Assembly: GCA_031278975.1 (NCBI GenBank)
Contig: JAITJL010000001.1
Location: 21,680-85,679 of the forward strand
Direction: 5' to 3'
Length of the DNA stretch: 64,000 bases
DNA from: Puniceicoccales bacterium
Lineage (GTDB): Bacteria > Verrucomicrobiota > Verrucomicrobiia > Opitutales > UBA9783
Positions 6,291 to 57,357 of the stretch are shown here, one piece after another. Both the position numbers and the translations under genes were made by a program. How positions within the stretch are numbered: position 1 is the stretch's first letter; every line of letters starts with the position of its first letter. The notes beneath the pieces are model-generated. The model saw only the letters and a program-made list of their open reading frames with translations. It did not search any database and was not told the origin of the DNA.

Positions 6291-6749
6291 TCAAGTCACT
6301 TTAACCTTAAACACAGCCTTTTTAACCCGTTGTGGGTGAGCACCGACGTTTAAAGCAGGCATGTGCGCATCCTGGGGACAAAAAATAAGAAACAGGGTTG
6401 CGTCAACCGTTAAAGTATCTACATCGCCCTCTAAAAATACAATGTCTTTTGCGTCATCGTACGTCGACTTAGGTTTTGTATAACCTATGTGCGTATATCC
6501 CATTTTTTCGGAACCGCGAATGACCATTTGAACGTCAATGTAACGACGATGGGCTTCCAATTTTTGCACGCCTTGGGTTGTGTATGCATCGATGTTTACA
6601 AATAGGTTGTCTCCATCGATCATGGGTCGGCCACACGCGAGTTTGTTCAGGTCACTACTTTTTAAAAAATCAAACACACGAATAAAATTTCCATGCAAGT
6701 AAAGATATATTCTAAAGTTTTCAATTTTGTCAATAATCACAGAAGGCAT
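6291..6749 (-). CDS. YhcH/YjgK/YiaL (DUF386, EbgC-like) family protein
   Basis: 152 aa. The block EAHRRYIDVQMVIRGSEKMGY...FLIFCPQDAHMP matches the family pattern as I recall it. Confidence 0.65.
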   Translation of the reverse strand: MPSVIIDKIENFRIYLYLHGNFIRVFDFLKSSDLNKLACGRPMIDGDNLFVNIDAYTTQGVQKLEAHRRYIDVQMVIRGSEKMGYTHIGYTKPKSTYDDAKDIVFLEGDVDTLTVDATLFLIFCPQDAHMPALNVGAHPQRVKKAVFKVKVT

Positions 6750-6897
6750 CTTTATTCAGAAAAACGATCACCAAAAGTTCTTTTTTAACGAAATTTTCCC
6801 TTGAGAACGCAACCTACCTTTATATAATTTTTTTACAGGGCTTAAATGCAAAAAAAATGGCAAGAAATATGCTACCGTAAATGCAAGTAAGTTATTT

Positions 6898-7260
6898 ATG
6901 AAAGCTGCTTGCCTAGAACCAAAGTTAAGCCAATTTATACATTCTGTTCCAATTTCAACAGCACAATGCGTCACTAAAGAAGCTAAGAAAACTTCGGAAA
7001 ACGTATTGGGTACGACAAGTTCTCAATTTACGCAATTCGAGGAATTTATTACCGGTTGTAATGTAGATTCACGGGAAGAAAACGCGAAACAATGTGTCGA
7101 TCAAGTTAGTAAGAGTCAAACAGTCGTACAAAATACAACCCTAGATAAATTAGAGACTGTGCCGGCTACAAAAGAAATTGGAATAGCGTTCGCTTTACTG
7201 CACGAAATGCGTTATAAATTAACGGATGGATTTAAGGAATTGATGCGACTCTCCATCTAA
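6898..7260 (+). CDS. FliE-like protein (flagellar hook-basal-body protein family), orphan
   Basis: 120 aa. The C-terminus EMRYKLTDGFKELMRLSI aligns residue-for-residue with the conserved FliE C-terminus (VRNKLVxAYQEIMRMQ[IV]). An upstream FxxFxxFI...N block is also FliE-like. Confidence 0.45.
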   Translation: MKAACLEPKLSQFIHSVPISTAQCVTKEAKKTSENVLGTTSSQFTQFEEFITGCNVDSREENAKQCVDQVSKSQTVVQNTTLDKLETVPATKEIGIAFALLHEMRYKLTDGFKELMRLSI

Positions 7261-7631
7261 ATCAAGATATTCAGTTCATTCACTAGAAATTTTCTGGTAG
7301 CATTCGTAGGATTTTCGTTCAAGTTTACAGCCTTGGACACAAAAAATAAGTATTAAATGTGGATCTTTTTGCTCAATTTATTGTAAAACAACATTGCTTA
7401 CTAGGTGTTTTTACATTATTGATTAGTGAGCTTCTTTTGTGAAAACAATTTTGATTGGGTTGCAAGTTGACTTACAGAACTGTTACCGCAAATGATCGCC
7501 TTTGCAGTAACCATCAGAACTCCCAATATCGTGTTAATCCTTTCTTACAGTTGATGTTGACAGAAGAACAAAAATGCAAACAGTGGTCATGGATAGCATA
7601 AATTTGTTCAACCTTTGAATATTGCACACGT

Positions 7632-7961
7632 ATGTTAGCGCACACACAGCCTGTTTCCGAGTTAACGCATTTTTCTAACACATCGATATCGCTTATATTG
7701 CAAATAGGTATATTTATGGTCTTTGTGATGGTTGGTACTTACGCTTTTGCCAAGTTTAAACAAAACAAATTCCCACTCAAAGCAAAAAATAAACCTTCTC
7801 AATTATCCATACTAGAAACGTATGCTTTGGGGAATCGGCAATATTTACTTGTCGTTGCGTACAATCAGCAAAAATTTCTCTTGAATGTTCATCCTCATGG
7901 AACCCAATACCTGTGTACTCTAAACAACACGTACGATAAAAAACAGCACGTTCACGAATAA
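7632..7961 (+). CDS. FliO-like small bitopic membrane protein, orphan
   Basis: 109 aa with one TM helix (LILQIGIFMVFVMVGTYAF) and a basic stretch. It then reads LSILETYALGNRQYLLVVAYNQQKFLLNVHPHGTQYLCTL, which matches the FliO core pattern (LxIxxxxxLGxRxxLxVVxxxxxxxLLGVxxxxxxxLxxL). Confidence 0.4.
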   Translation: MLAHTQPVSELTHFSNTSISLILQIGIFMVFVMVGTYAFAKFKQNKFPLKAKNKPSQLSILETYALGNRQYLLVVAYNQQKFLLNVHPHGTQYLCTLNNTYDKKQHVHE

Positions 7962-9130: not shown

Positions 9131-10708
9131 ATGCAAATCAAACATGTTAAACTCGGATTATTGGGATTGCTTGCTTCGCAAGTGGCCGCATTGGCTACAC
9201 CTGCAGACCCCAATGGCCCACTGGTGCAAATTATTGATGGCAAAAGACAAGTGCATCCATTGTTTACACCAGAATTTGTAAAAGAGCTACACTTATTAAA
9301 CAAGCGTAGTTACCGAATTACCCACCGAGGTGAGAACGCCTACGATTATACCCACCCTCACAAACTGAATTCCAACAGGCTGAATAAATTCTCTTACACT
9401 TCAGATATTCTCTCCAATCAAACGGATACTTGGTATTGCCATCGTCCATTTGTTGGGACACATGGTACAAACCGTTTAAGAGGAATCATAGGGTTTTTCC
9501 CACACGCTCACGGTGTTGAAGTGGACTATCCAGGATTTGTTGCCGTTCGACAAGCAACCGATGATGTACCTCCCGTAATAGCGATCGTTTTTCGAGGGTC
9601 TCAGTCGCGCAACTTTCAACCTCTCCACGGTATATTGGGCCCCAGTTGGTTAACCAATTTCTCTGCGATCAAGATGGATTATCCAGAAACTTTAGGTCTC
9701 AATGCAACTTTCCACAGAGGATTTTTGGAAAAGTACTTGGCGGCTCGGCAAAGTATTTTCGGAGACATCAATGACTGTATTCGTCTGATTCCCATTGAAC
9801 AACGACAAGACATCCGCTTTATTATCACAGGGCACAGTCAAGGAGCAGGTATCTGCTTACCCGCAGCTCTCGATATAGTCCATACATTTGGTCCACAAAT
9901 CTTTGGTGAGGCCTTCAACAACATTGAAACTCCTAGATTCTTTGTTTACGCACTATCTGGACCCAATTCTGTGGGCAGCAGCAGCACCAAGCGGTTGTTC
10001 AATGACGTGGTAGGTCGCGACAACGTCATTCGACATTCTAGTATTCTCGATATTGTGACTTATCTTTGCCTTGGTAAACACTATGATCGCTGGCTTTACA
10101 ATGCCATCTTACGTGTAACCGTAGGGATACAAGCTGGGTATACACCTGTCGGACATCTGGCCATTGATGACCTTGCAAATCTCTTACAAAAGGGTTTTGC
10201 ATTTAACAACCAAGTGGATAATCTACGCAACTTTGAAACCATATCTCGCTATTGCTTCAAAGGCTACCACGAAGCCATGCTCACTTATCAACACGGCGCG
10301 TTTCTCAGTTTCTGCTATAAAGGGATTGCAACGTATCACTTCTTGCGAGGAAGTCATGCCATGGGAGGGCTTGTGAATTTCATTGCCATCAATCACTACG
10401 GCAGTCTAAATGCATCTCAGGTGAATCCTACCGAATGTCCAGAAGAAGCCATCGACGATGCGGACAATCATTCCTACTCTTTTGATCCACGGTTACCCGA
10501 ATGTTCGCTGGATAACTGTTTAGAAAGAGGTGCAAACCATAGGGATTTAAGTCTAGGTATGCGTACCTATGTCGATCCAAGTCAGGTCTTTACATCCGTA
10601 CCCGCTGGTTTTGATAGGATAACACTTGACGAAGATTTTAATTTTGAAGCCTTATTTTTGTCAGGACCCAACGCTTATGAAAGCGATGATGAAGACATTG
10701 AAGAGTAG
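9131..10708 (+). CDS. Secreted class-3 lipase / alpha-beta hydrolase
   Basis: Signal peptide MQIKHVKLGLLGLLASQVAALATP. Lipase_3-like VIAIVFRGSQS block and nucleophile elbow ITGHSQGAG. Acidic C-terminal tail YESDDEDIEE. Confidence 0.65.
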   Translation: MQIKHVKLGLLGLLASQVAALATPADPNGPLVQIIDGKRQVHPLFTPEFVKELHLLNKRSYRITHRGENAYDYTHPHKLNSNRLNKFSYTSDILSNQTDTWYCHRPFVGTHGTNRLRGIIGFFPHAHGVEVDYPGFVAVRQATDDVPPVIAIVFRGSQSRNFQPLHGILGPSWLTNFSAIKMDYPETLGLNATFHRGFLEKYLAARQSIFGDINDCIRLIPIEQRQDIRFIITGHSQGAGICLPAALDIVHTFGPQIFGEAFNNIETPRFFVYALSGPNSVGSSSTKRLFNDVVGRDNVIRHSSILDIVTYLCLGKHYDRWLYNAILRVTVGIQAGYTPVGHLAIDDLANLLQKGFAFNNQVDNLRNFETISRYCFKGYHEAMLTYQHGAFLSFCYKGIATYHFLRGSHAMGGLVNFIAINHYGSLNASQVNPTECPEEAIDDADNHSYSFDPRLPECSLDNCLERGANHRDLSLGMRTYVDPSQVFTSVPAGFDRITLDEDFNFEALFLSGPNAYESDDEDIEE

Positions 10709-25454: not shown

Positions 25455-26723
25455 ATGTTAATCATGCAACATTCATGCAAACAAGCTTATTGGAATTGGC
25501 TGCTCTTATCTGCATTTTTTGCTTACCAATATTTGTTACGCATTTATCCAAGTATTTTTACGGATGAAATTAGGGCAACGTTCCAGTTTTCTGCCAACGA
25601 ATTCTCAACATTGAGTACCTACTGCATTGGCATATACAGTTGTTTACAAATTCCGTTGGGCATCCTGTTGGATAAAATGGGCGTGCGATGGATCATTATC
25701 GCTTCTTTAGGCCTATGCTTGGTAAGCCAATACTTGTTCACGCATACGCAAGTTCAATGGGTTGCCCAATGGGGACGCGTTCTCATTGGGATAGGATCCG
25801 CACCTGCATTTATGGGCGTCGTAAAGGTAATTTCGGATTCTTTTTCCAATAGGCTTTGCGGCATTTTTATAGGGATTACCTGTGTTTTAGGTATGGTGAC
25901 CACCATGGTGGGTAGTCATTGGTTGCGGCAATTGGATGCTACCGGCTTAAGTTAGCAGCAAGCCATCGATAGTCTGTTGTGGATAGGATGTATGCTGTGG
26001 ATCATACTGTTACTTTCTTTGACAACTGTGAACGAAAATCGGTCTGCAAATGCCCCTAAGGGATACACTCGTTTTTGGCCGTCTTTTTGTTCTGTATTAT
26101 TGAATCATAAGGTTTTTTCGTACGCACTTTTAACCGTTGGAACGTGCGCCGTTGTGAATACGGTATCGGGTCTATGGGGGCCTGCTTTTTTAAGTGCCAA
26201 ATACCATCTATCCCCCTTGCAAGCGGTACATTACAATCAAAGCATTTCTGCAGGATTGATGGTGGGCAGTTTTTTGCTACCCACTATATTTAGTGAAGGC
26301 AAAAGAATTTTGCAGGGTATCCGTACGTGTTATCTTATCCTGGTAGGTATTTTTATATGCTTAATCTACGGCTCAGCGTCCATACCTCCTTCCTTATTAC
26401 AAATCGCATTATTTGTAGCTGGCATTGTAGCTTGTGCTGACATTCTTTGTTTTTCATTGACAGCCCAGTTGTCAACGCCAAAAACTTCGGCACTCATCGT
26501 AGGCTGGGTTGATACGATTCACATGCTAGGTTTAGCTTGCCTGCAAGGATTGGTTGCGTTTTCTTTAGACAAACATTGGTCAGGGGTTACGAATGAGCAG
26601 GGCTTAAGAATTTACCAGGCCCGCGACTACGAATTCGCCTTGGGTGTATTATTAAATGTTGTCATTGGTGGCACGGTTATCGTATGGTGTATGCGCAGTA
26701 AAAATCATAATTTGAAAAAATGA
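25455..26723 (+). pseudogene. MFS transporter interrupted by a single in-frame TAG (25953-25955)
   Basis: Track ORFs 25455..25955 and 25977..26723 are in the same frame (both coordinates are divisible by 3). They read ...RQLDATGLS*QQAIDSLLWIGCMLW... Together they give about 12 TM segments, a normal MFS size. Confidence 0.7.
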
Positions 26724-41013: not shown

Positions 41014-42540
41014 ATGAATGAGACAAACGGAGAACCGGAATTTTCTAAATTAAGACGCATATTTTTCCCCGTTCATCGGTATGAATTGAAAAAAGTTATT
41101 CCCATGGGAATGATTTTTTTCTTCATATTATTCAATTACACCTGCTTAAGGAATATTAAAGATTCTCTGGTTGTTACCAATACGGGTGCAGAAGCACTCT
41201 CTTACTTAAAGTTGTTTTGCGTAACACCCTCCGCCATCATATTTATGCTTTTGTACGCCAAAGCGAGCAATATTTTAAGTAACGAAAAATTGTTTTACGC
41301 CACTCTTTCACCTTTTATTTTATTTTTTGGATTGTTTGCGTTTGTCATTTACCCCAATCGTGGATGGTTTCATCCAACTGCAGCAACGATTGCAAGTTGG
41401 CAAGTCCAGTTACCTATTTTACATTGGCCACTCGCTTTGCTTGGCGTGTGGAGTTACAGCGTATTCTACGTTTTGTCAGAATTATGGGGAAGCGCACTAC
41501 TATCTTTATCCTTTTGGCAATTTGCAAATCAAGTAACACGCGTTTCTGAAGCCAAACGCGTCTACGCTTTTTTTGGTTTAATGGCCCAATTTTCCCTATT
41601 GTTTTCGGGTGTCTTGGGAGATTATTTTTCAAATATTTCGGATAAAGTAAGCCCTGATGTAGATCCATGGCAGATTTCCCTTAATTGGCTTATGGGTACC
41701 GTTGTTTTATTCGGTATCGTTACCATGTGTATTTACCGATGGATCTATAAATACGTTTTGACCGACAAACGTTTCTACGATAAGCCAGAGTTGCCAGGAG
41801 TCAAAAAGGGGAAGAAAAAAGCTGGACTCATTCAAAGTTTGAAGACGATCTTTACGTCGCCTTATTTAGGACTCATTGCCATGTTGGTCATTTGTTATGG
41901 GATCAGCGTCAACGTCATTGAAGGTTTATGGAAAAGTCAGCTGAAGTTACAATATCACAACGAAAATGATTACAACACGTTTATGAGTCGTTTTACGATA
42001 TTAACGGGACTTGCTTCCATCGTTATGTTAATTGTTGGAGGAAATATACTACGCATTTGCCGTTGGGTGGTCGCAGCAATGTCTACACCGGTTGTATTTT
42101 TGGTGGGTGGTACCATTTTCTTTTCATTTGTTTTATTTCGTCAAGAATTGACAGGTATATTGGTTCAGTGGGGCACCAATCCGGTTACCATGGCCGTATT
42201 TTTGGGGGCAACGATTGTGATTGCATCCAAATCCACCAAATATGCTTTGTTTGATCTAACAAAAGAAATGGCCTACATCCCCTTGGATGAAGAAATGAAA
42301 GTTAAAGGTAAAGCTGTCGTAGATGTTGTAGGGGGTCGTTTGGGTAAATCGGGAGGTGCTTTCATTCAAGTTGCTTTATTTTCTATTGTAAGCAGTTTAG
42401 CAGGCGTAAAAGCAACCTATTATCAAATTGTCCCTTACGTATTTGCTTTATTTATCTTGGGGTGTATTGTGTGGATTTTATCCGTAAGCGCTTTGGGGAA
42501 ACGTGTGGAAAATGCTAACAGAGAAGCGGGAGAGGCTTAA
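41014..42540 (+). CDS. tlc: ATP/ADP (nucleotide) translocase, TLC/NTT family
   Basis: 508 aa and polytopic. The N-terminus LRRIFFPVHRYELKKVIPMGMIFFFILFNYTCLRNIKDSLVVT is the hallmark TLC-family block. KSTKYALFDLTKEMAYIPLDEEMKVKGKAVVDVVGGRLGKSGGA is also family-typical. Confidence 0.9.
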   Translation: MNETNGEPEFSKLRRIFFPVHRYELKKVIPMGMIFFFILFNYTCLRNIKDSLVVTNTGAEALSYLKLFCVTPSAIIFMLLYAKASNILSNEKLFYATLSPFILFFGLFAFVIYPNRGWFHPTAATIASWQVQLPILHWPLALLGVWSYSVFYVLSELWGSALLSLSFWQFANQVTRVSEAKRVYAFFGLMAQFSLLFSGVLGDYFSNISDKVSPDVDPWQISLNWLMGTVVLFGIVTMCIYRWIYKYVLTDKRFYDKPELPGVKKGKKKAGLIQSLKTIFTSPYLGLIAMLVICYGISVNVIEGLWKSQLKLQYHNENDYNTFMSRFTILTGLASIVMLIVGGNILRICRWVVAAMSTPVVFLVGGTIFFSFVLFRQELTGILVQWGTNPVTMAVFLGATIVIASKSTKYALFDLTKEMAYIPLDEEMKVKGKAVVDVVGGRLGKSGGAFIQVALFSIVSSLAGVKATYYQIVPYVFALFILGCIVWILSVSALGKRVENANREAGEA

Positions 42541-43301: not shown

Positions 43302-43889
43302 ATGAAAAGAAAGGATTTATTACTTGTTTTGACGGGAACATCGGGTAGCGGAAAAACAACCTTGTGCACACGCCTCCTAAAAAGTTTTCCTAACGTTGAT
43401 CGCGTTACTACAACGACGACGCGCCTACCGCGCCAGGGAGAAGTACATGGTGTAGATTATTATTTTTCTACTCAGGAAAATTTTTCCATGGGTATTGAAA
43501 AAAATGCGTACTTAGAATATTCAAAGGTTTACGATCACTACTATGGGCTTTCTAAAGAAGCGGTTGAGCAATCAAGTAGCGCAGGTAAAGATTTAGTTTT
43601 GTGCGTAGACGTACATGGGGCACAGACGTTAAAAAGACACTTTAATGCCACACAAAACGACCGTCGACTGATTTGTGTGTTTGTTAGCCCATCCAGTCTT
43701 ACGGAATTAAAGAATCGTTTGACTAATCGCGGAACCGACGATGTATGGACGATCCAAAAACGCCTTCAAACGGCTGAAAAAGAGTGGGCAACTTTACCTC
43801 AATTTGATTATTATCTGTGCAGTCAAGACAAAGAGTCCGATTGGCAATCTTTGCAGCATATTTATTTTGCAGAGAAAATGCGTATTTAA
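43302..43889 (+). CDS. gmk: Guanylate kinase
   Basis: An internal ATG (43302) of track ORF 43263..43889. P-loop LTGTSGSGKTTL, then TTTTRLPRQGEVHGVDYYF and YLEYSKVYDHYYG. Confidence 0.88.
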   Translation: MKRKDLLLVLTGTSGSGKTTLCTRLLKSFPNVDRVTTTTTRLPRQGEVHGVDYYFSTQENFSMGIEKNAYLEYSKVYDHYYGLSKEAVEQSSSAGKDLVLCVDVHGAQTLKRHFNATQNDRRLICVFVSPSSLTELKNRLTNRGTDDVWTIQKRLQTAEKEWATLPQFDYYLCSQDKESDWQSLQHIYFAEKMRI

Positions 43890-44299
43890 GCAATGTTTTC
43901 AATGTAAACCTCCGTGAGTCGTTGATTATTTGGAATAAATAATTGAGAAAGATTGAAATAGGCTATCCCCATTTTCCCTAACAAAGAATCGCGCGAGCAT
44001 GTTAGGATAATTTTTCCATTTTCACTAAAAACGCAACGGCCTTGTGGATCCACAACGATAGAAATGACAGAATTTGGATCATTGCGAAATTCGTTAAGTA
44101 AAGGGTCCGTATGTATGCCTTCCAATAACTCCGCTTTCATTTTGTTGAAAGTTTCTTTTGCACAACCTTTTCTCGACAACCGATTGAGAATTGCGCTAAG
44201 ATTAAGCGTACAAGTTTCGATACTTCGTATTTTGTTTAACGTTTGCTCAAGCAACGAAGTCCCGATATTGGATAATCCGCTGATAATTAAAGGATGCAT
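43886..44299 (-). CDS. Hypothetical protein
   Basis: 137-aa ORF that converges on gmk with a 4-nt overlap. No recognised motif. Confidence 0.4.
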   Translation of the reverse strand: MHPLIISGLSNIGTSLLEQTLNKIRSIETCTLNLSAILNRLSRKGCAKETFNKMKAELLEGIHTDPLLNEFRNDPNSVISIVVDPQGRCVFSENGKIILTCSRDSLLGKMGIAYFNLSQLFIPNNQRLTEVYIENIA

Positions 44300-44439
44300 A
44301 CTGGCATACGTAGCATTTATCGTGCCAACTTCTAGATAAACGCTTCAATTTGAGAATAAAATGTGGGTAGCTTGTAAGGGGAACGAACAAGTAAAATGTA
44401 TTGAAGTGCAATGAACCTTATATTACATTTGAAAAAGAA

Positions 44440-54494: not shown

Positions 54495-55334
54495 CTATTT
54501 TTCAGCTTTCCGTATGCTTTCTGTCTTCCGTGGAAATTCTGGAAAATTGTAATACACATCTCTATCTTTGATGAGGTACGTATCCCTGATGTTGTAGATA
54601 TGTTCTTTGCAATCATCCATCGATTGAAATTTATTCCACACGATTTTGAAGGCATTTGCATTTGTTATGTACCATGATAATCCTGCTTGCATGGTACTAC
54701 AATCAGCCCAACCGAGCGTATTTTCAAAGTCGAACCCAGTCCCACTTTTCCTAAAAGGTACATAGGTAAACCGATCTCCTTTATACAAATGATTCGGCAA
54801 AAAACAACGGATATTTCCAGCAGGAACCGTATTGTCCGAACCATTCGGCGGAAACTCGTTAAAAATCAAATAATAGTTGCGACACGCTTTTACCACGCAT
54901 TCAATATTGTATACGCATTCGTTGAGGCGAAAATCTTCCGTGGCTTTTTTAAACCCCGGAACGGCGATGGTGGCCAGAATCGCCACAATGCACAGCGTTA
55001 CAACGATTTCGATGAGCGTAAAACCGTTACGGTTTACGGATGTGGATGAATACTTCGGTGCTCGGCCAAGTCCAGACGTCCGGAGAGGAACCGACTCAGG
55101 ATATCTTGCTGCTTGACAAGGTCGGAGAAACCTGTTTTGGCTTAGGGAGGAATGCTCCAATGCTCGGCTAGATATCGGCGCCCGGAGGGAAATCGATGTT
55201 CCAGAACACCTCGCCGCTTGACCTGGAACCGACTTAGGACGCTCTGTCGCAGTTAAACAGTCAGATGCCTTGGCGTCTCGATGAAAACCGTTTCGACTTG
55301 GGGATGGACATTTTAACTCCTGGACTGGCCTCAA
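54495..55334 (-). CDS. Prepilin-type N-terminal cleavage/methylation-domain protein (pseudopilin/pilin-like). The 5' end is anomalous and it may be a pseudogene.
   Basis: The class III signal core G|FTLIEIVVTLCIVAILATIAVP has its Phe(+1) codon at 55020-55022, so the mature part is 54495..55022. The 104 in-frame upstream codons contain no ATG or GTG. Only TTG at 55334 and TTG at 55160 are available, implying 104- or 46-aa leaders. Confidence 0.55.
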   Translation of the reverse strand: MRPVQELKCPSPSRNGFHRDAKASDCLTATERPKSVPGQAARCSGTSISLRAPISSRALEHSSLSQNRFLRPCQAARYPESVPLRTSGLGRAPKYSSTSVNRNGFTLIEIVVTLCIVAILATIAVPGFKKATEDFRLNECVYNIECVVKACRNYYLIFNEFPPNGSDNTVPAGNIRCFLPNHLYKGDRFTYVPFRKSGTGFDFENTLGWADCSTMQAGLSWYITNANAFKIVWNKFQSMDDCKEHIYNIRDTYLIKDRDVYYNFPEFPRKTESIRKAEK

Positions 55335-55651
55335 TCTTCGATGAGGGTCTCAATCCTCGACGAAATTCTAATGCCTGGATTGGTCCTAACCTTCGACCAG
55401 GTTCTGAACTCCGGTTCAGTTTCAATACCTGGCTTCGCCTAAATCTTCGATGGGATCCTGACCTTTGATTGGGTTCCAACCCTTGGCTCAGTCCCAACCG
55501 TTGAACTGGCTTTAGATCCGAGATCAGTCCAAATCTTCGGTAGGGTTCCACTCCCCGGTTCGGTCTCAACCCTCGACGAAATTCTAATTCCCGGCTCGTT
55601 CCTAATTCCGAAGCTGGTCCCAATCTTTGACCGGAGTCCTCTAACTTCGGA
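55310..55651. repeat. Phased degenerate tandem array, 19 units of 18 bp (consensus about GGTYCYAAYCYTCGRNNN), G+C-rich
   Basis: Units read in register: attttaactcctggactg, gcctcaatcttcgatgag, ggtctcaatcctcgacga, aattctaatgcctggatt, ggtcctaaccttcgacca, ggttctgaactccggttc, ... ggtcccaatctttgaccg, gagtcctctaacttcgga. The 36-mers at 55346-55381 and 55562-55597 are 31/36 identical and sit exactly 12 units apart. Confidence 0.8.
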
Positions 55652-57357
55652 ATGCTATTGGCAACTAAGCGCTTAGCTGTCTTGGGTCTTCACTACTAAA
55701 TTAGTATAGCCTTTCCTTACTACCTCTGTCAAGGGCTTTTTGGGGGATTTCATAAAGTTGTTCGGAGGGTTTTCATGGATTTTGGAAACAAATCTTCTGT
55801 TATTCGGAGGTTTTTAGGTCGTTCAATGCAACGGCCGGAGCATGTTCATCTTACGGCAAAACCGAGTCGCGTGTTAAATAACTAAAACCCTCGGATGCAG
55901 TGTGGATGCACCGCTGCGCTCATTACAGAGGAACACTAGCAAACGGTAAAATCATAAGAAAATACCTTCGAAAATTCCTCAGTTATGACGAAAATGATGC
56001 AGTTGCGGCAAAACTATGTTCAAAAACCCAAGTTGGTGGTGGTAAAGCTTATGCGGTTCTCCGGGATATATGCGTTTATATCTAACTTCCCGGAGAATTT
56101 CCAAAAGCTTATATAAGACTATCTCATCCAAATGAATTAAGGACCTATTTACACTTAAAACATGCATTTATAGGTTAAATTTTACGGTGCATTGCCTATC
56201 TATGGCATTATAACACCTTGCAAAAGTTATTTCAAAGCCTCGTTACGCTCCATCCACATGCCACCCTACGTCGGATATTTCGCCGGGCATAGACGTATTG
56301 GCGTAAAATTCCATTGGGTTCAATGAAGGGTAGGACTTAGTTCCATCAGAAAGATCAAATAGGGTCAATGGTGCAAACACCGAATCTCATGTCGAACAAC
56401 GATCCATCGGACGCCTCGTGAATATAACCTCTGTACTCGCCGAAGTTACAAGCATTATAGCAGGCATGCAAGCCGTGAGATAGCATCTTCAAAAGCCTCG
56501 ACTGCAAGCTAAGATGACGAAGACAATGTTATCTCGGCAAAAGCCGGATTCATAGACTTAGATTGCAGTGATAAACCCGATTACAAATAAGTTGCCAAAC
56601 GAAAACGAAAGTTTTCCATTCTACGGATGCATTCAATGAACCTTCATCTATACAAACCAACTTTACCAAATTTTTAAAGGCGGTATGCCGCTTTGTTTCA
56701 TGTTACATTTCCTACGCTTGTATGTACTCATTGCATCGTTCCAAGAGATATCCAAAACCATCGTCCGGATATCAACAGACGCTCGATTGCCTTTCGACGG
56801 CGTTTATTAAAGAGCAACAGCGCGTATAGTACCCCAATTTCGAGTATGCGTTATATTCCTTTATCCACGACCCGTTTCCCTACTCCTATCCAAGAATCTA
56901 TTGAGAAACAATAGACGCAAATCGTTGTGTAATCAGATAATACGCTCGCACGTGCCTCGGTTATCCTTGGTTATAACGCGCATCTGTTTGTAGCAGTGCA
57001 TACACTTGCTTCAACGAGATACTTTCACAGCTAAAGTATGTTTTTTCTCTATGGATACTACCTCAAGAAAAGTACACAGAACAAGACGGAAGCCCCTCTA
57101 TTTAAGACAAGTATACCCCTAATAAGAATTAAAATAGTCTACTTTATTTTTGGAAGATTCCTTCAACAGGTTACATAAAACTTAAGTTTTAAAGCTAAAG
57201 TTTTATAAACATTTTGGGGATCACTTTACTTAAAAATAAAAGCTTTTGGATTTATATCAGGATTCTATTGTGCGTTATTAGAAGATGTATTGAGTTGGTA
57301 ATATTACAGCAAGAGAAAGTATTGCAAAACATCTATGATGCGTACTTTGGTTTTTGG

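Follow-up and report, generated by a model that had tools for sequence, protein, structure and literature searches.

Adjacent fliE and fliO genes of termite-gut Puniceicoccales are probable remnants of a dismantled flagellar operon

Retention of part of the flagellar gene set is already known in kind, as partial sets in endosymbionts (Buchnera) and as orphan flagellar genes in Chlamydia. Buchnera aphidicola keeps some two dozen flagellar genes for its basal bodies, including fliF, fliG, fliPQR, flhAB, and rod and hook genes, and a role in export, and not in swimming, has been proposed for what is retained. Chlamydia, a nonflagellated member of the Planctomycetes-Verrucomicrobia-Chlamydiae (PVC) bacteria, carries orphan homologues of flhA, fliI, and fliF that are thought to interact with its complete nonflagellar type III secretion system (T3SS). 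Flagellar export genes have also been linked to bacterial nanotubes, a proposal that is disputed. The nanotube platform proposed in Bacillus subtilis, termed CORE, comprises FliO, FliP, FliQ, and FliR along with FlhB and FlhA, and a flgB-fliF deletion was reported as not deficient in that study (PMC6456723). Here, we describe a 64,000-nucleotide stretch from a Puniceicoccales bacterium (called the window below, at its full length) in which fliE (6898-7260, forward strand, 120 amino acids [aa]) and fliO (7632-7961, forward strand, 109 aa) lie side by side. Our best overall explanation, with a probability of about 0.6, is that the two genes are operon remnants retained for a flagellar export gate.

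The genes belong to a small clade whose proteins are named "MAG: ... [Puniceicoccales bacterium]" at NCBI. Scanning genome contigs with the FliO alignment returned only four sister metagenome-assembled genomes (MAGs), namely Ncb351_bin56, Cc175_bin121, Cd354_bin116, and Gx481_bin184. According to the supplement of Mies et al. 2024 (PMC11257099), these come from termite guts, the hosts being the kalotermitids Neotermes cubanus, Cryptotermes cavifrons, C. dudleyi, and Glyptotermes sp. Public records of the MAGs include assembly GCA_031266455.1 (Gx481_bin184) and contigs JAITAV010000017.1 (Ncb351_bin56), JAIRKR010000056.1 (Cc175_bin121), and JAIRMU010000001.1 (Cd354_bin116).

The original prediction, made from the letters alone, had named the two open reading frames (ORFs) FliE-like and FliO-like. 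For ORF 6898-7260, the FliE family was the best match in both Pfam and NCBIfam and the match extended to the C terminus, with direct scores that missed the curated cut-offs (PF02049, 16.1 bits against 22.4, E 0.013; TIGR00205, 19.6 bits against 30, E 8e-4). A word-indexed search gave eight homologues only, 73 to 100% identical, from Puniceicoccales MAGs or Joint Genome Institute (JGI) metagenomes. Run against 1.84 billion representative proteins, a profile of the eight clade sequences returned 10 matches. One was a clade member, and a 3,722-aa repetitive protein was set aside as spurious; eight further proteins of 115 to 157 aa matched through the C terminus (E 1.5e-9 to 9e-4), and all eight score 59 to 95 bits on PF02049. 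The closest canonical FliE proteins are encoded in metagenome contigs. An independent FliE alignment, built from ORFs gathered by position in loci found through FliI, aligned with clade FliE at an hhalign probability of 96.3% (E 1.5e-9), and tblastn with the FliE of a flagellated relative (L009/L095) reached the window's gene at 38% identity (E 4e-12); identity to relatives was 36 to 38% in the alignment. Because the clade profile, hhalign, and tblastn all reach bona fide FliE, and with the conserved gene junction described below, we regard the product of this ORF as a FliE orthologue that is divergent but genuine, failing curated scores and passing tests of homology.

Its layout is that of the family, with 120 aa, a conserved N terminus, a variable middle, and a conserved helix at the very C-terminal end. 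This helix (residues 93 to 120) is nearly canonical, reading QEIGIAFxLLHEMRHKLTDGFKELMRLSI in the clade versus QEAGIAFTLLLEMRNKLxEGFKELxRMSI in the relatives, and the N-terminal block is EAKKTSENVLGT in the clade versus AAKQNLAEVLGT in verrucomicrobial relatives. Ahead of the last helix, an 8-aa deletion in 8/8 clade sequences has removed the G-x-(S/T)DNLHQ segment; G-x-SDNLHQ is conserved in all canonical relatives compared. An AlphaFold2 (AF2) model had a pLDDT of 58.7, with >90 at residues 91 to 120.

ORF 7632-7961 scored 32.4 bits against PF04347 (gathering cut-off 22, E 9.8e-8) and missed the stricter equivalog threshold of TIGR03500 (36.5 bits against 55.25). NCBI gives its name as FliO. 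It is 39% identical over 110 aa (E 8e-20) to the FliO that ends the operon of relative L095, collinear from the LAH start to the end, and the clade FliO profile matches FliO ORFs in seven FliI-anchored loci. The protein has the FliO architecture of one N-terminal transmembrane (TM) helix, a basic stretch (KFKQNKFPLKAKNK) after the hydrophobic segment, and a small C-terminal domain; the AF2 model places a helix at 9-46 (TM) and a four-stranded beta meander at 59-97, with pLDDT ~80 in both. To judge from these matches, the ORF encodes a genuine FliO orthologue. In the clade, fliO is followed by an APH-family kinase gene and not by fliP, and fliP is likewise not the next gene in both close relatives. 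Because both of these lack fliP after fliO, the fliO-then-fliP adjacency is not a defining feature of the family in this lineage.

Some variation in FliO and its annotation was also seen. FliO of the window and of the Neotermes MAG stops six residues earlier than in the other three species (L002, L006, and L007 compared), and window FliO lacks three residues near its N terminus. On the Glyptotermes contig, JGI gene calling skips fliO and calls an opposite-strand ORF instead (L097, 1657-1926).

Could both ORFs be chance look-alikes, unrelated to FliE and FliO? This would account for direct FliE profile scores below the curated cut-offs and for the lack of a PDB or fold match. Against it stand the transitive route to FliE, with E values down to 1.5e-9 in 1.84e9 proteins, the hhalign probability of 96.3%, a FliO that exceeds its Pfam cut-off and aligns over its full length with that of the relative, and a flgC-fliE junction conserved on the 5' side. 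We consider such coincidence scarcely credible.

The probable origin of the pair becomes apparent from flagellated relatives. In the first (L009/L095), RecA, DnaJ, and GrpE are 86%, 68%, and 53% identical to those of the window and are encoded in the same order. Its flagellar operon has 16 genes on one strand, flgB(-like)-flgC-fliE-fliF-G-H-I-J-x-x-flgD-flgE-fliL-M-N-fliO, and stops at fliO, which is followed by an ORF of no known family, a class-I aminoacyl-tRNA synthetase gene, and a DksA-like gene. In a second relative (L011/L096), the operon consists of these 16 genes as well, and fliO is last once more; a more distant, Pfam-checked locus (L027) reads fliN-fliO-fliP-fliQ-fliR. The original prediction had assumed that fliO sits inside fliN-O-P-Q-R, a premise that does not hold in this lineage. 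Because fliO ends the operon in both close relatives, the absence of fliP beside fliO is ancestral and does not speak for a loss, and the ancestral place of fliO is at the end of the operon, with fliPQR encoded elsewhere.

Thus, fliE and fliO are genes 3 and 16 of the relatives' operon, in an order and orientation that the window shares, and are separated there by 10.4 kb and 12 genes versus 362 to 391 bp in the five clade species. Because order and orientation agree, the distance has shrunk to this extent, and a flgC remnant and a promoter-like motif lie at the same distance upstream, the adjacency of the pair would be explained by one internal deletion.

That remnant (6840..6897, forward strand) holds the flgC 3' end together with the spacer between flgC and fliE. 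It can be aligned to the corresponding junctions of L095, L096, and L094 and marks the upstream deletion boundary. Although neither flgC nor fliF is now a neighbor of fliE, the flgC end and spacer are recognizable on its 5' side at the same distance as in these three relatives. In the relatives, the motif overlaps the final flgC codons, ATT GGC AAG TAA; the clade stop codon is mutated (AAG AAA) and no flgC ORF is left, so the clade has kept the flgC end and the spacer with a mutated stop.

The motif itself, TGGCAAGAAATATGC, is of the sigma-54 type (GG-N10-GC) and lies at 6858..6872 on the forward strand, 40 nucleotides (nt) 5' of the fliE ATG. It is invariant in 5/5 clade species amid variable intergenic DNA and agrees at 14/15 positions with the relatives' TGGCAAGTAATATGC, which lies 41 nt 5' of fliE in L095 and L096 and is also present at the flgC-fliE junction of L094. 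A sigma-54-type pattern is likewise found 5' of flgB in both relatives. Because the motif is invariant where coding constraint is gone, we infer that it is a putative working promoter of the sigma-54 type. The pattern TGGCA-N7-TGC occurs eight times in the window versus 1.97 expected. An NtrC-type activator is encoded ~5 kb 3' of fliO in a flagellated relative, and the window gave no Sigma54_activat match. Two other candidate promoters were dropped, a sigma-70-like site at 6801-6828 (11/12 matches) that is not conserved in the sister species and a weak site at 7467-7496. No terminator was predicted between fliE and fliO, and the clade comparison revealed no conserved promoter in their spacer; cotranscription of the two genes is plausible. 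A second sigma-54-type motif, TTGGCACGATAAATGCT, lies at 44313-44327 on the reverse strand, 13 nt 5' of ORF 43886-44299 (reverse strand, 137 aa, no Pfam family), which may share a regulon with fliE.

The spacer between the two genes (7261..7631) was described in the original prediction as an ORF-free gap of ~370 bp that might be decayed sequence. The gap was borne out, as 371 bp without a conserved ORF. Its length ranges from 362 to 391 bp across the five species, and its indels measure 1, 2, 4, 10, 15, 17, and 26 nt, many of them frame-breaking. The DNA is 74 to 83% identical to that of sister species, inside the ordinary intergenic range (58 to 92% for other intergenic regions), which led us to reject the idea of unusually conserved sequence. 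A hidden gene was rejected as well, with no ORF conserved between species in six-frame translation, as were a structured RNA (no Rfam match, a fold z of 0.29, and an unfavorable covariation term) and a FliF, FliM, or FliN pseudogene (no trace at E<=10). Because of the frame-breaking indels, ordinary conservation, and lack of RNA structure or pseudogene trace, the segment behaves as a noncoding scar; we take it for the scar of the deletion of fliF to fliN, 12 genes and ~10.4 kb in the relatives. No similarity was demonstrable between the 3' end of fliN and the sequence 5' of fliO. Since the spacers can be aligned across the five species, the deletion predates their split, and the pair has therefore been maintained while the clade diversified.

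Selection on the pair was estimated as dN/dS by the Nei-Gojobori method over five species, with dS of ~0.6 to 0.7. The ratio was 0.24 for fliE and 0.13 for fliO, compared with 0.05 to 0.24 for neighboring genes, and the synonymous excess was significant in every pair tested (Fisher p 1.5e-5 to 1e-16). Within FliE, it fell from 0.31 at the N terminus to 0.23 in the middle and 0.12 in the C-terminal helix; the FliO beta domain gave 0.08. In Salmonella FliE, only some 20 residues at the start and some 30 at the end are mutationally critical and the middle is a spacer (PMC8546590), the same layout of constraint as in the clade. All ORFs are intact (8/8 clade sequences for FliE and 6/6 for FliO), and their indels are in frame only, except for the earlier stop that trims FliO by 6 aa in two species. 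Both fliE and fliO are under purifying selection, as working genes rather than decaying debris.

These data bear directly on whether the two genes are nonfunctional relics, that is, young pseudogenes that still look intact. They are stranded remnants of a deleted operon, and fliE DNA is only 77 to 83% identical between species versus 88 to 93% for housekeeping neighbors, as such a view would expect. However, dN/dS lies well under 1 for all pairs (p<=1.5e-5), 0/14 sequences carry a stop or frameshift while the adjacent spacer gained many frame-breaking indels in an equal span of time, and the promoter motif is invariant. We judge decay very improbable. The suggestion that the pair are the last remnants of a dismantled flagellar locus therefore stands for their origin, as genes 3 and 16 of one operon with a flgC remnant alongside; the two genes themselves are not decaying. 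We hold the steps of our explanation that concern origin and selection with high confidence.

Other flagellar or T3SS genes were sought in several ways. From the 17-kb point to the end of the window, every remaining ORF of 110 aa or more was scanned with Pfam, and those without a match were rescanned at a relaxed threshold; genes at 1.4 to 16.9 kb were identified by Pfam matches and the recorded matches of their orthologues in L002 and L003, and ORF 1086-1418 lay outside the scan. No flagellar or T3SS family was seen among the scanned window ORFs, which encode housekeeping, envelope, and transport functions instead. When every forward-strand ORF of nine complete flagellar loci (together spanning flgB to fliR) was used in tblastn, the window matched only FliE (6976-7257) and FliO (7638-7946). 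The same search of the syntenic loci of four sister species, and of ~9 kb further along the Gx481 contig, gave no further flagellar match, and no sct genes were seen in the surveyed sequence. The statement that no other flagellar or T3SS genes lie nearby thus holds for the 64-kb window. FliI-anchored loci served as independent flagellar operons in this work. The metagenome scan with the FliI alignment listed loci 44 to 60% identical, the relative's own JGI contig (L010) was not among them, and the scan has no bearing on clade FliI.

As to function, FliO helps FliP assemble its ring and FliE sits on FliP/FliR in model organisms; because of these roles, the survivors would be the pair of operon products with direct action on FliPQR. 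The common ancestor of the clade would have lost flgBC, with a breakpoint inside the flgC 3' end, and the 12 genes from fliF to fliN (~10.4 kb), which would have left ~370 bp between fliE and fliO, with the former fliE-proximal promoter in front of them. The two genes would be transcribed as one unit from this sigma-54-type promoter, and FliE and FliO would be kept for their action at a FliPQR/FlhBA gate encoded elsewhere. With its locus separate in the relatives, the gate would have escaped the fliF-fliN deletion, and what the clade operates would be a pared-down flagellar type III export device instead of an organelle for motility. A reduced export apparatus had been the second suggestion of the original prediction; selection and intact ORFs make it the better functional reading, and we infer it with caution. 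That the clade keeps a stripped-down export gate served by FliO and FliE is a tentative step, which we would place slightly short of even odds.

Several observations weigh against an export gate of this kind or against parts of the case for it. In ~75 kb surveyed (the window, L097, and L093), no fliP, fliQ, fliR, flhA, flhB, fliF, or rpoN was detected, in a genome that is probably near 1 Mb. Without fliF to fliN, a gate would have neither an MS ring to house it nor a C ring or ATPase, and we know of no precedent for a gate without FliF, C ring, and ATPase. The FliE protein is more diverged from its counterpart in the relative (38% identity) than GrpE is (53%), lacks the G-x-SDNLHQ segment, and scores below threshold on direct Pfam and TIGRFAM comparison. 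Its AF2 model is poor outside the C-terminal helix and gave no Foldseek match in PDB, and the FliO model gave chance matches only; sequence-profile searches of PDB with the clade alignments likewise found no FliE and no FliO match. The predicted sigma-54 dependence comes from the motif. Finally, export of Salmonella FliE needs FliF and FliP (PMC8546590).

Alternatively, a complete flagellum or basal body might still be built from a scattered regulon, fliF to fliN and flgBC having moved and not been lost. Both genes are under purifying selection with a flagellar-type promoter motif kept, and the relatives' regulon is already split over several loci, with fliPQR outside the operon. Some intracellular bacteria (Midichloria and marine chlamydiae) also keep full flagellar gene sets. 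However, to move exactly 12 internal genes would take two precise breakpoints and an insertion where one deletion is simpler, the ~75 kb surveyed held no other flagellar gene, and FliE is missing a motif that all canonical relatives conserve. This makes a scattered regulon distinctly unlikely.

It is also necessary to consider that FliE and FliO are the sole flagellar genes left and have taken on a new job without a gate, for example as a small membrane protein and its soluble partner. Purifying selection has persisted through ~0.6 synonymous substitutions per site after the loss of their neighbors, FliE has changed in sequence and architecture (the 8-aa deletion and 36 to 38% identity), and the pair now stands beside a same-strand APH-family kinase gene and a fast-evolving secreted class-3 lipase. 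A new job is hard to square with the FliE C-terminal helix, which contacts the gate and rod in Salmonella, being the most conserved and nearly canonical part, or with the strong constraint on the FliO beta domain (dN/dS 0.08), and we know of no function of FliE or FliO that is independent of FliPQR. We consider it unlikely. A broader reading leaves these genomes with no flagellar structural genes other than fliE and fliO, which would have kept their ancestral sigma-54-type promoter and would function without MS ring, C ring, ATPase, or rod. In one version, a minimal gate of FliO, FliPQR-FlhBA, and FliE may act as a membrane export or exchange channel of an intracellular symbiont; in the other, the role may be fully independent of type III export. 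As a whole, we find it somewhat unlikely.

The surroundings of the pair are those proposed originally, and Pfam agrees with a YhcH-family gene and an APH-family kinase gene as its flanks. The order is YhcH/DUF386 (reverse strand), fliE, fliO, APH-family kinase, and class-3 lipase (all forward). The YhcH/DUF386 gene (6291-6749, reverse strand, by Pfam), directly 5' of the pair in the window, is absent from the Neotermes cubanus MAG (L003), in which rnc is followed directly by fliE; because of this absence, the flank 5' of the pair differs even among clade members. The class-3 lipase gene, two genes 3' of fliO (9131-10708, forward strand), encodes a Sec-type signal peptide. It evolves fast for the locus (dN/dS 0.24; 60 to 91% aa identity between species), which would fit a protein that is secreted to act on the host. 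GC content is 37.6% at the locus versus ~40% throughout the window, and synteny of the flanks extends to all species; on these grounds, horizontal transfer of fliE-fliO was rejected.

A host-restricted genome had also been proposed. The window encodes a TLC-family ATP/ADP translocase (41014-42540, forward strand; PF03219, 607 bits), a hallmark of energy-parasitic intracellular bacteria. Two successive ORFs (25455-25955 and 25977-26723, forward strand) correspond to the N- and C-terminal halves of the MFS_1 profile and together resemble a single transporter gene interrupted by a stop or frameshift, as a sign of gene decay in progress. Because of the translocase and the disrupted transporter, "host-restricted" is a fair description, and it is fair to view the clade as termite-gut, ATP-importing symbionts of the Puniceicoccales/Opitutales. 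PMC11257099 describes a large clade of Verrucomicrobiota with small genomes and mentions Opitutales that are putatively endosymbiotic and carry nucleotide transporters, among them the endonuclear "Candidatus Nucleococcus." The window's TLC translocase agrees with the ancestral nucleotide transporters reported there for putatively endosymbiotic Opitutales (PMC11257099).

Other features of the window and of the relatives are given here for completeness. Between a pilin-like gene and prs, ~1.7 kb (55620-57357) has no ORF of at least 75 aa, Rfam match, or tandem repeat and may be decayed sequence. ORF 54495-55334 (reverse strand) has its prepilin N_methyl motif at residues 101 to 124, and because of that position its true start probably lies further downstream; a homologue was found ~2.5 kb 5' of grpE-dnaJ-recA in the flagellated relative L009. 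The segment at 17 to 20 kb carries an AAA_22 (ExeA-like) ATPase gene and two neighbors of no known family. The flagellated relatives encode a CesT-family chaperone ~5 kb 5' of the operon (L009, 4049-4483, reverse strand), and in L096 (12184-15936, forward strand) fliO is followed directly by a 659-aa ORF of no known family, then by one that is TPR-like and by one that faintly matches SseC, a translocator. Effector-type cargo may be linked to the relatives' flagellar operon.

Taken together, the retained pair of FliE and FliO, a deletion that is reconstructible against intact relatives, and the preserved promoter motif are new, and Verrucomicrobiota from lower-termite guts are a new lineage for such retention. 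The locus offers a clean, datable case of the dismantling of a flagellar operon, with intact relatives, five sister species that share the outcome, one breakpoint placed inside the flgC 3' end, and the other bounded to the 371-bp spacer. Should gate genes persist without those for ring, motor, and rod, the clade would be a candidate for a flagellar export gate naturally reduced to a minimum, with both the phylum and the kind of host being new; should they not persist, some unrecognized function must be assigned to FliE and FliO.

How, then, does this locus compare with the known systems? At the level of the proteins, FliE resembles canonical and Salmonella FliE in size, in a C-terminal helix of the form ...RNKLxxxxxELMRMxx, and in functional termini joined by a tolerant spacer (PMC8546590). 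It differs from them in lacking the G-x-SDNLHQ segment, in a change of N to H/Y in EMRNKL, and in scoring below curated cut-offs. FliO has the single TM helix and small beta domain of canonical FliO (PF04347). Neither gene has its usual neighbors.

At the level of the system, one close parallel is Buchnera, which shares a host-restricted, shrinking genome in which part of the flagellar type III machinery stays under selection after the loss of motility genes. Unlike in Buchnera, the operon has lost its MS-ring, C-ring, ATPase, hook, and proximal-rod genes, with fliE and fliO the only ones seen, and the bacterium belongs to the Verrucomicrobiota and lives in the termite gut, with a gut flagellate as its probable host. 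The resemblance to Chlamydia lies in an intracellular bacterium of the PVC superphylum with an ATP/ADP translocase and a few isolated flagellar genes away from clusters. Chlamydia, however, has kept genes for the export engine, the ATPase, and the MS ring, whereas here a rod-base adaptor and a FliP chaperone are found and no sct genes are seen. Like CORE, the present case would involve an export-gate subset that contains FliO and is proposed to work without the rest of the flagellum; unlike in CORE, of which FliE is not a member, the surveyed clade sequence pairs FliO with FliE and no CORE partner was observed in it.

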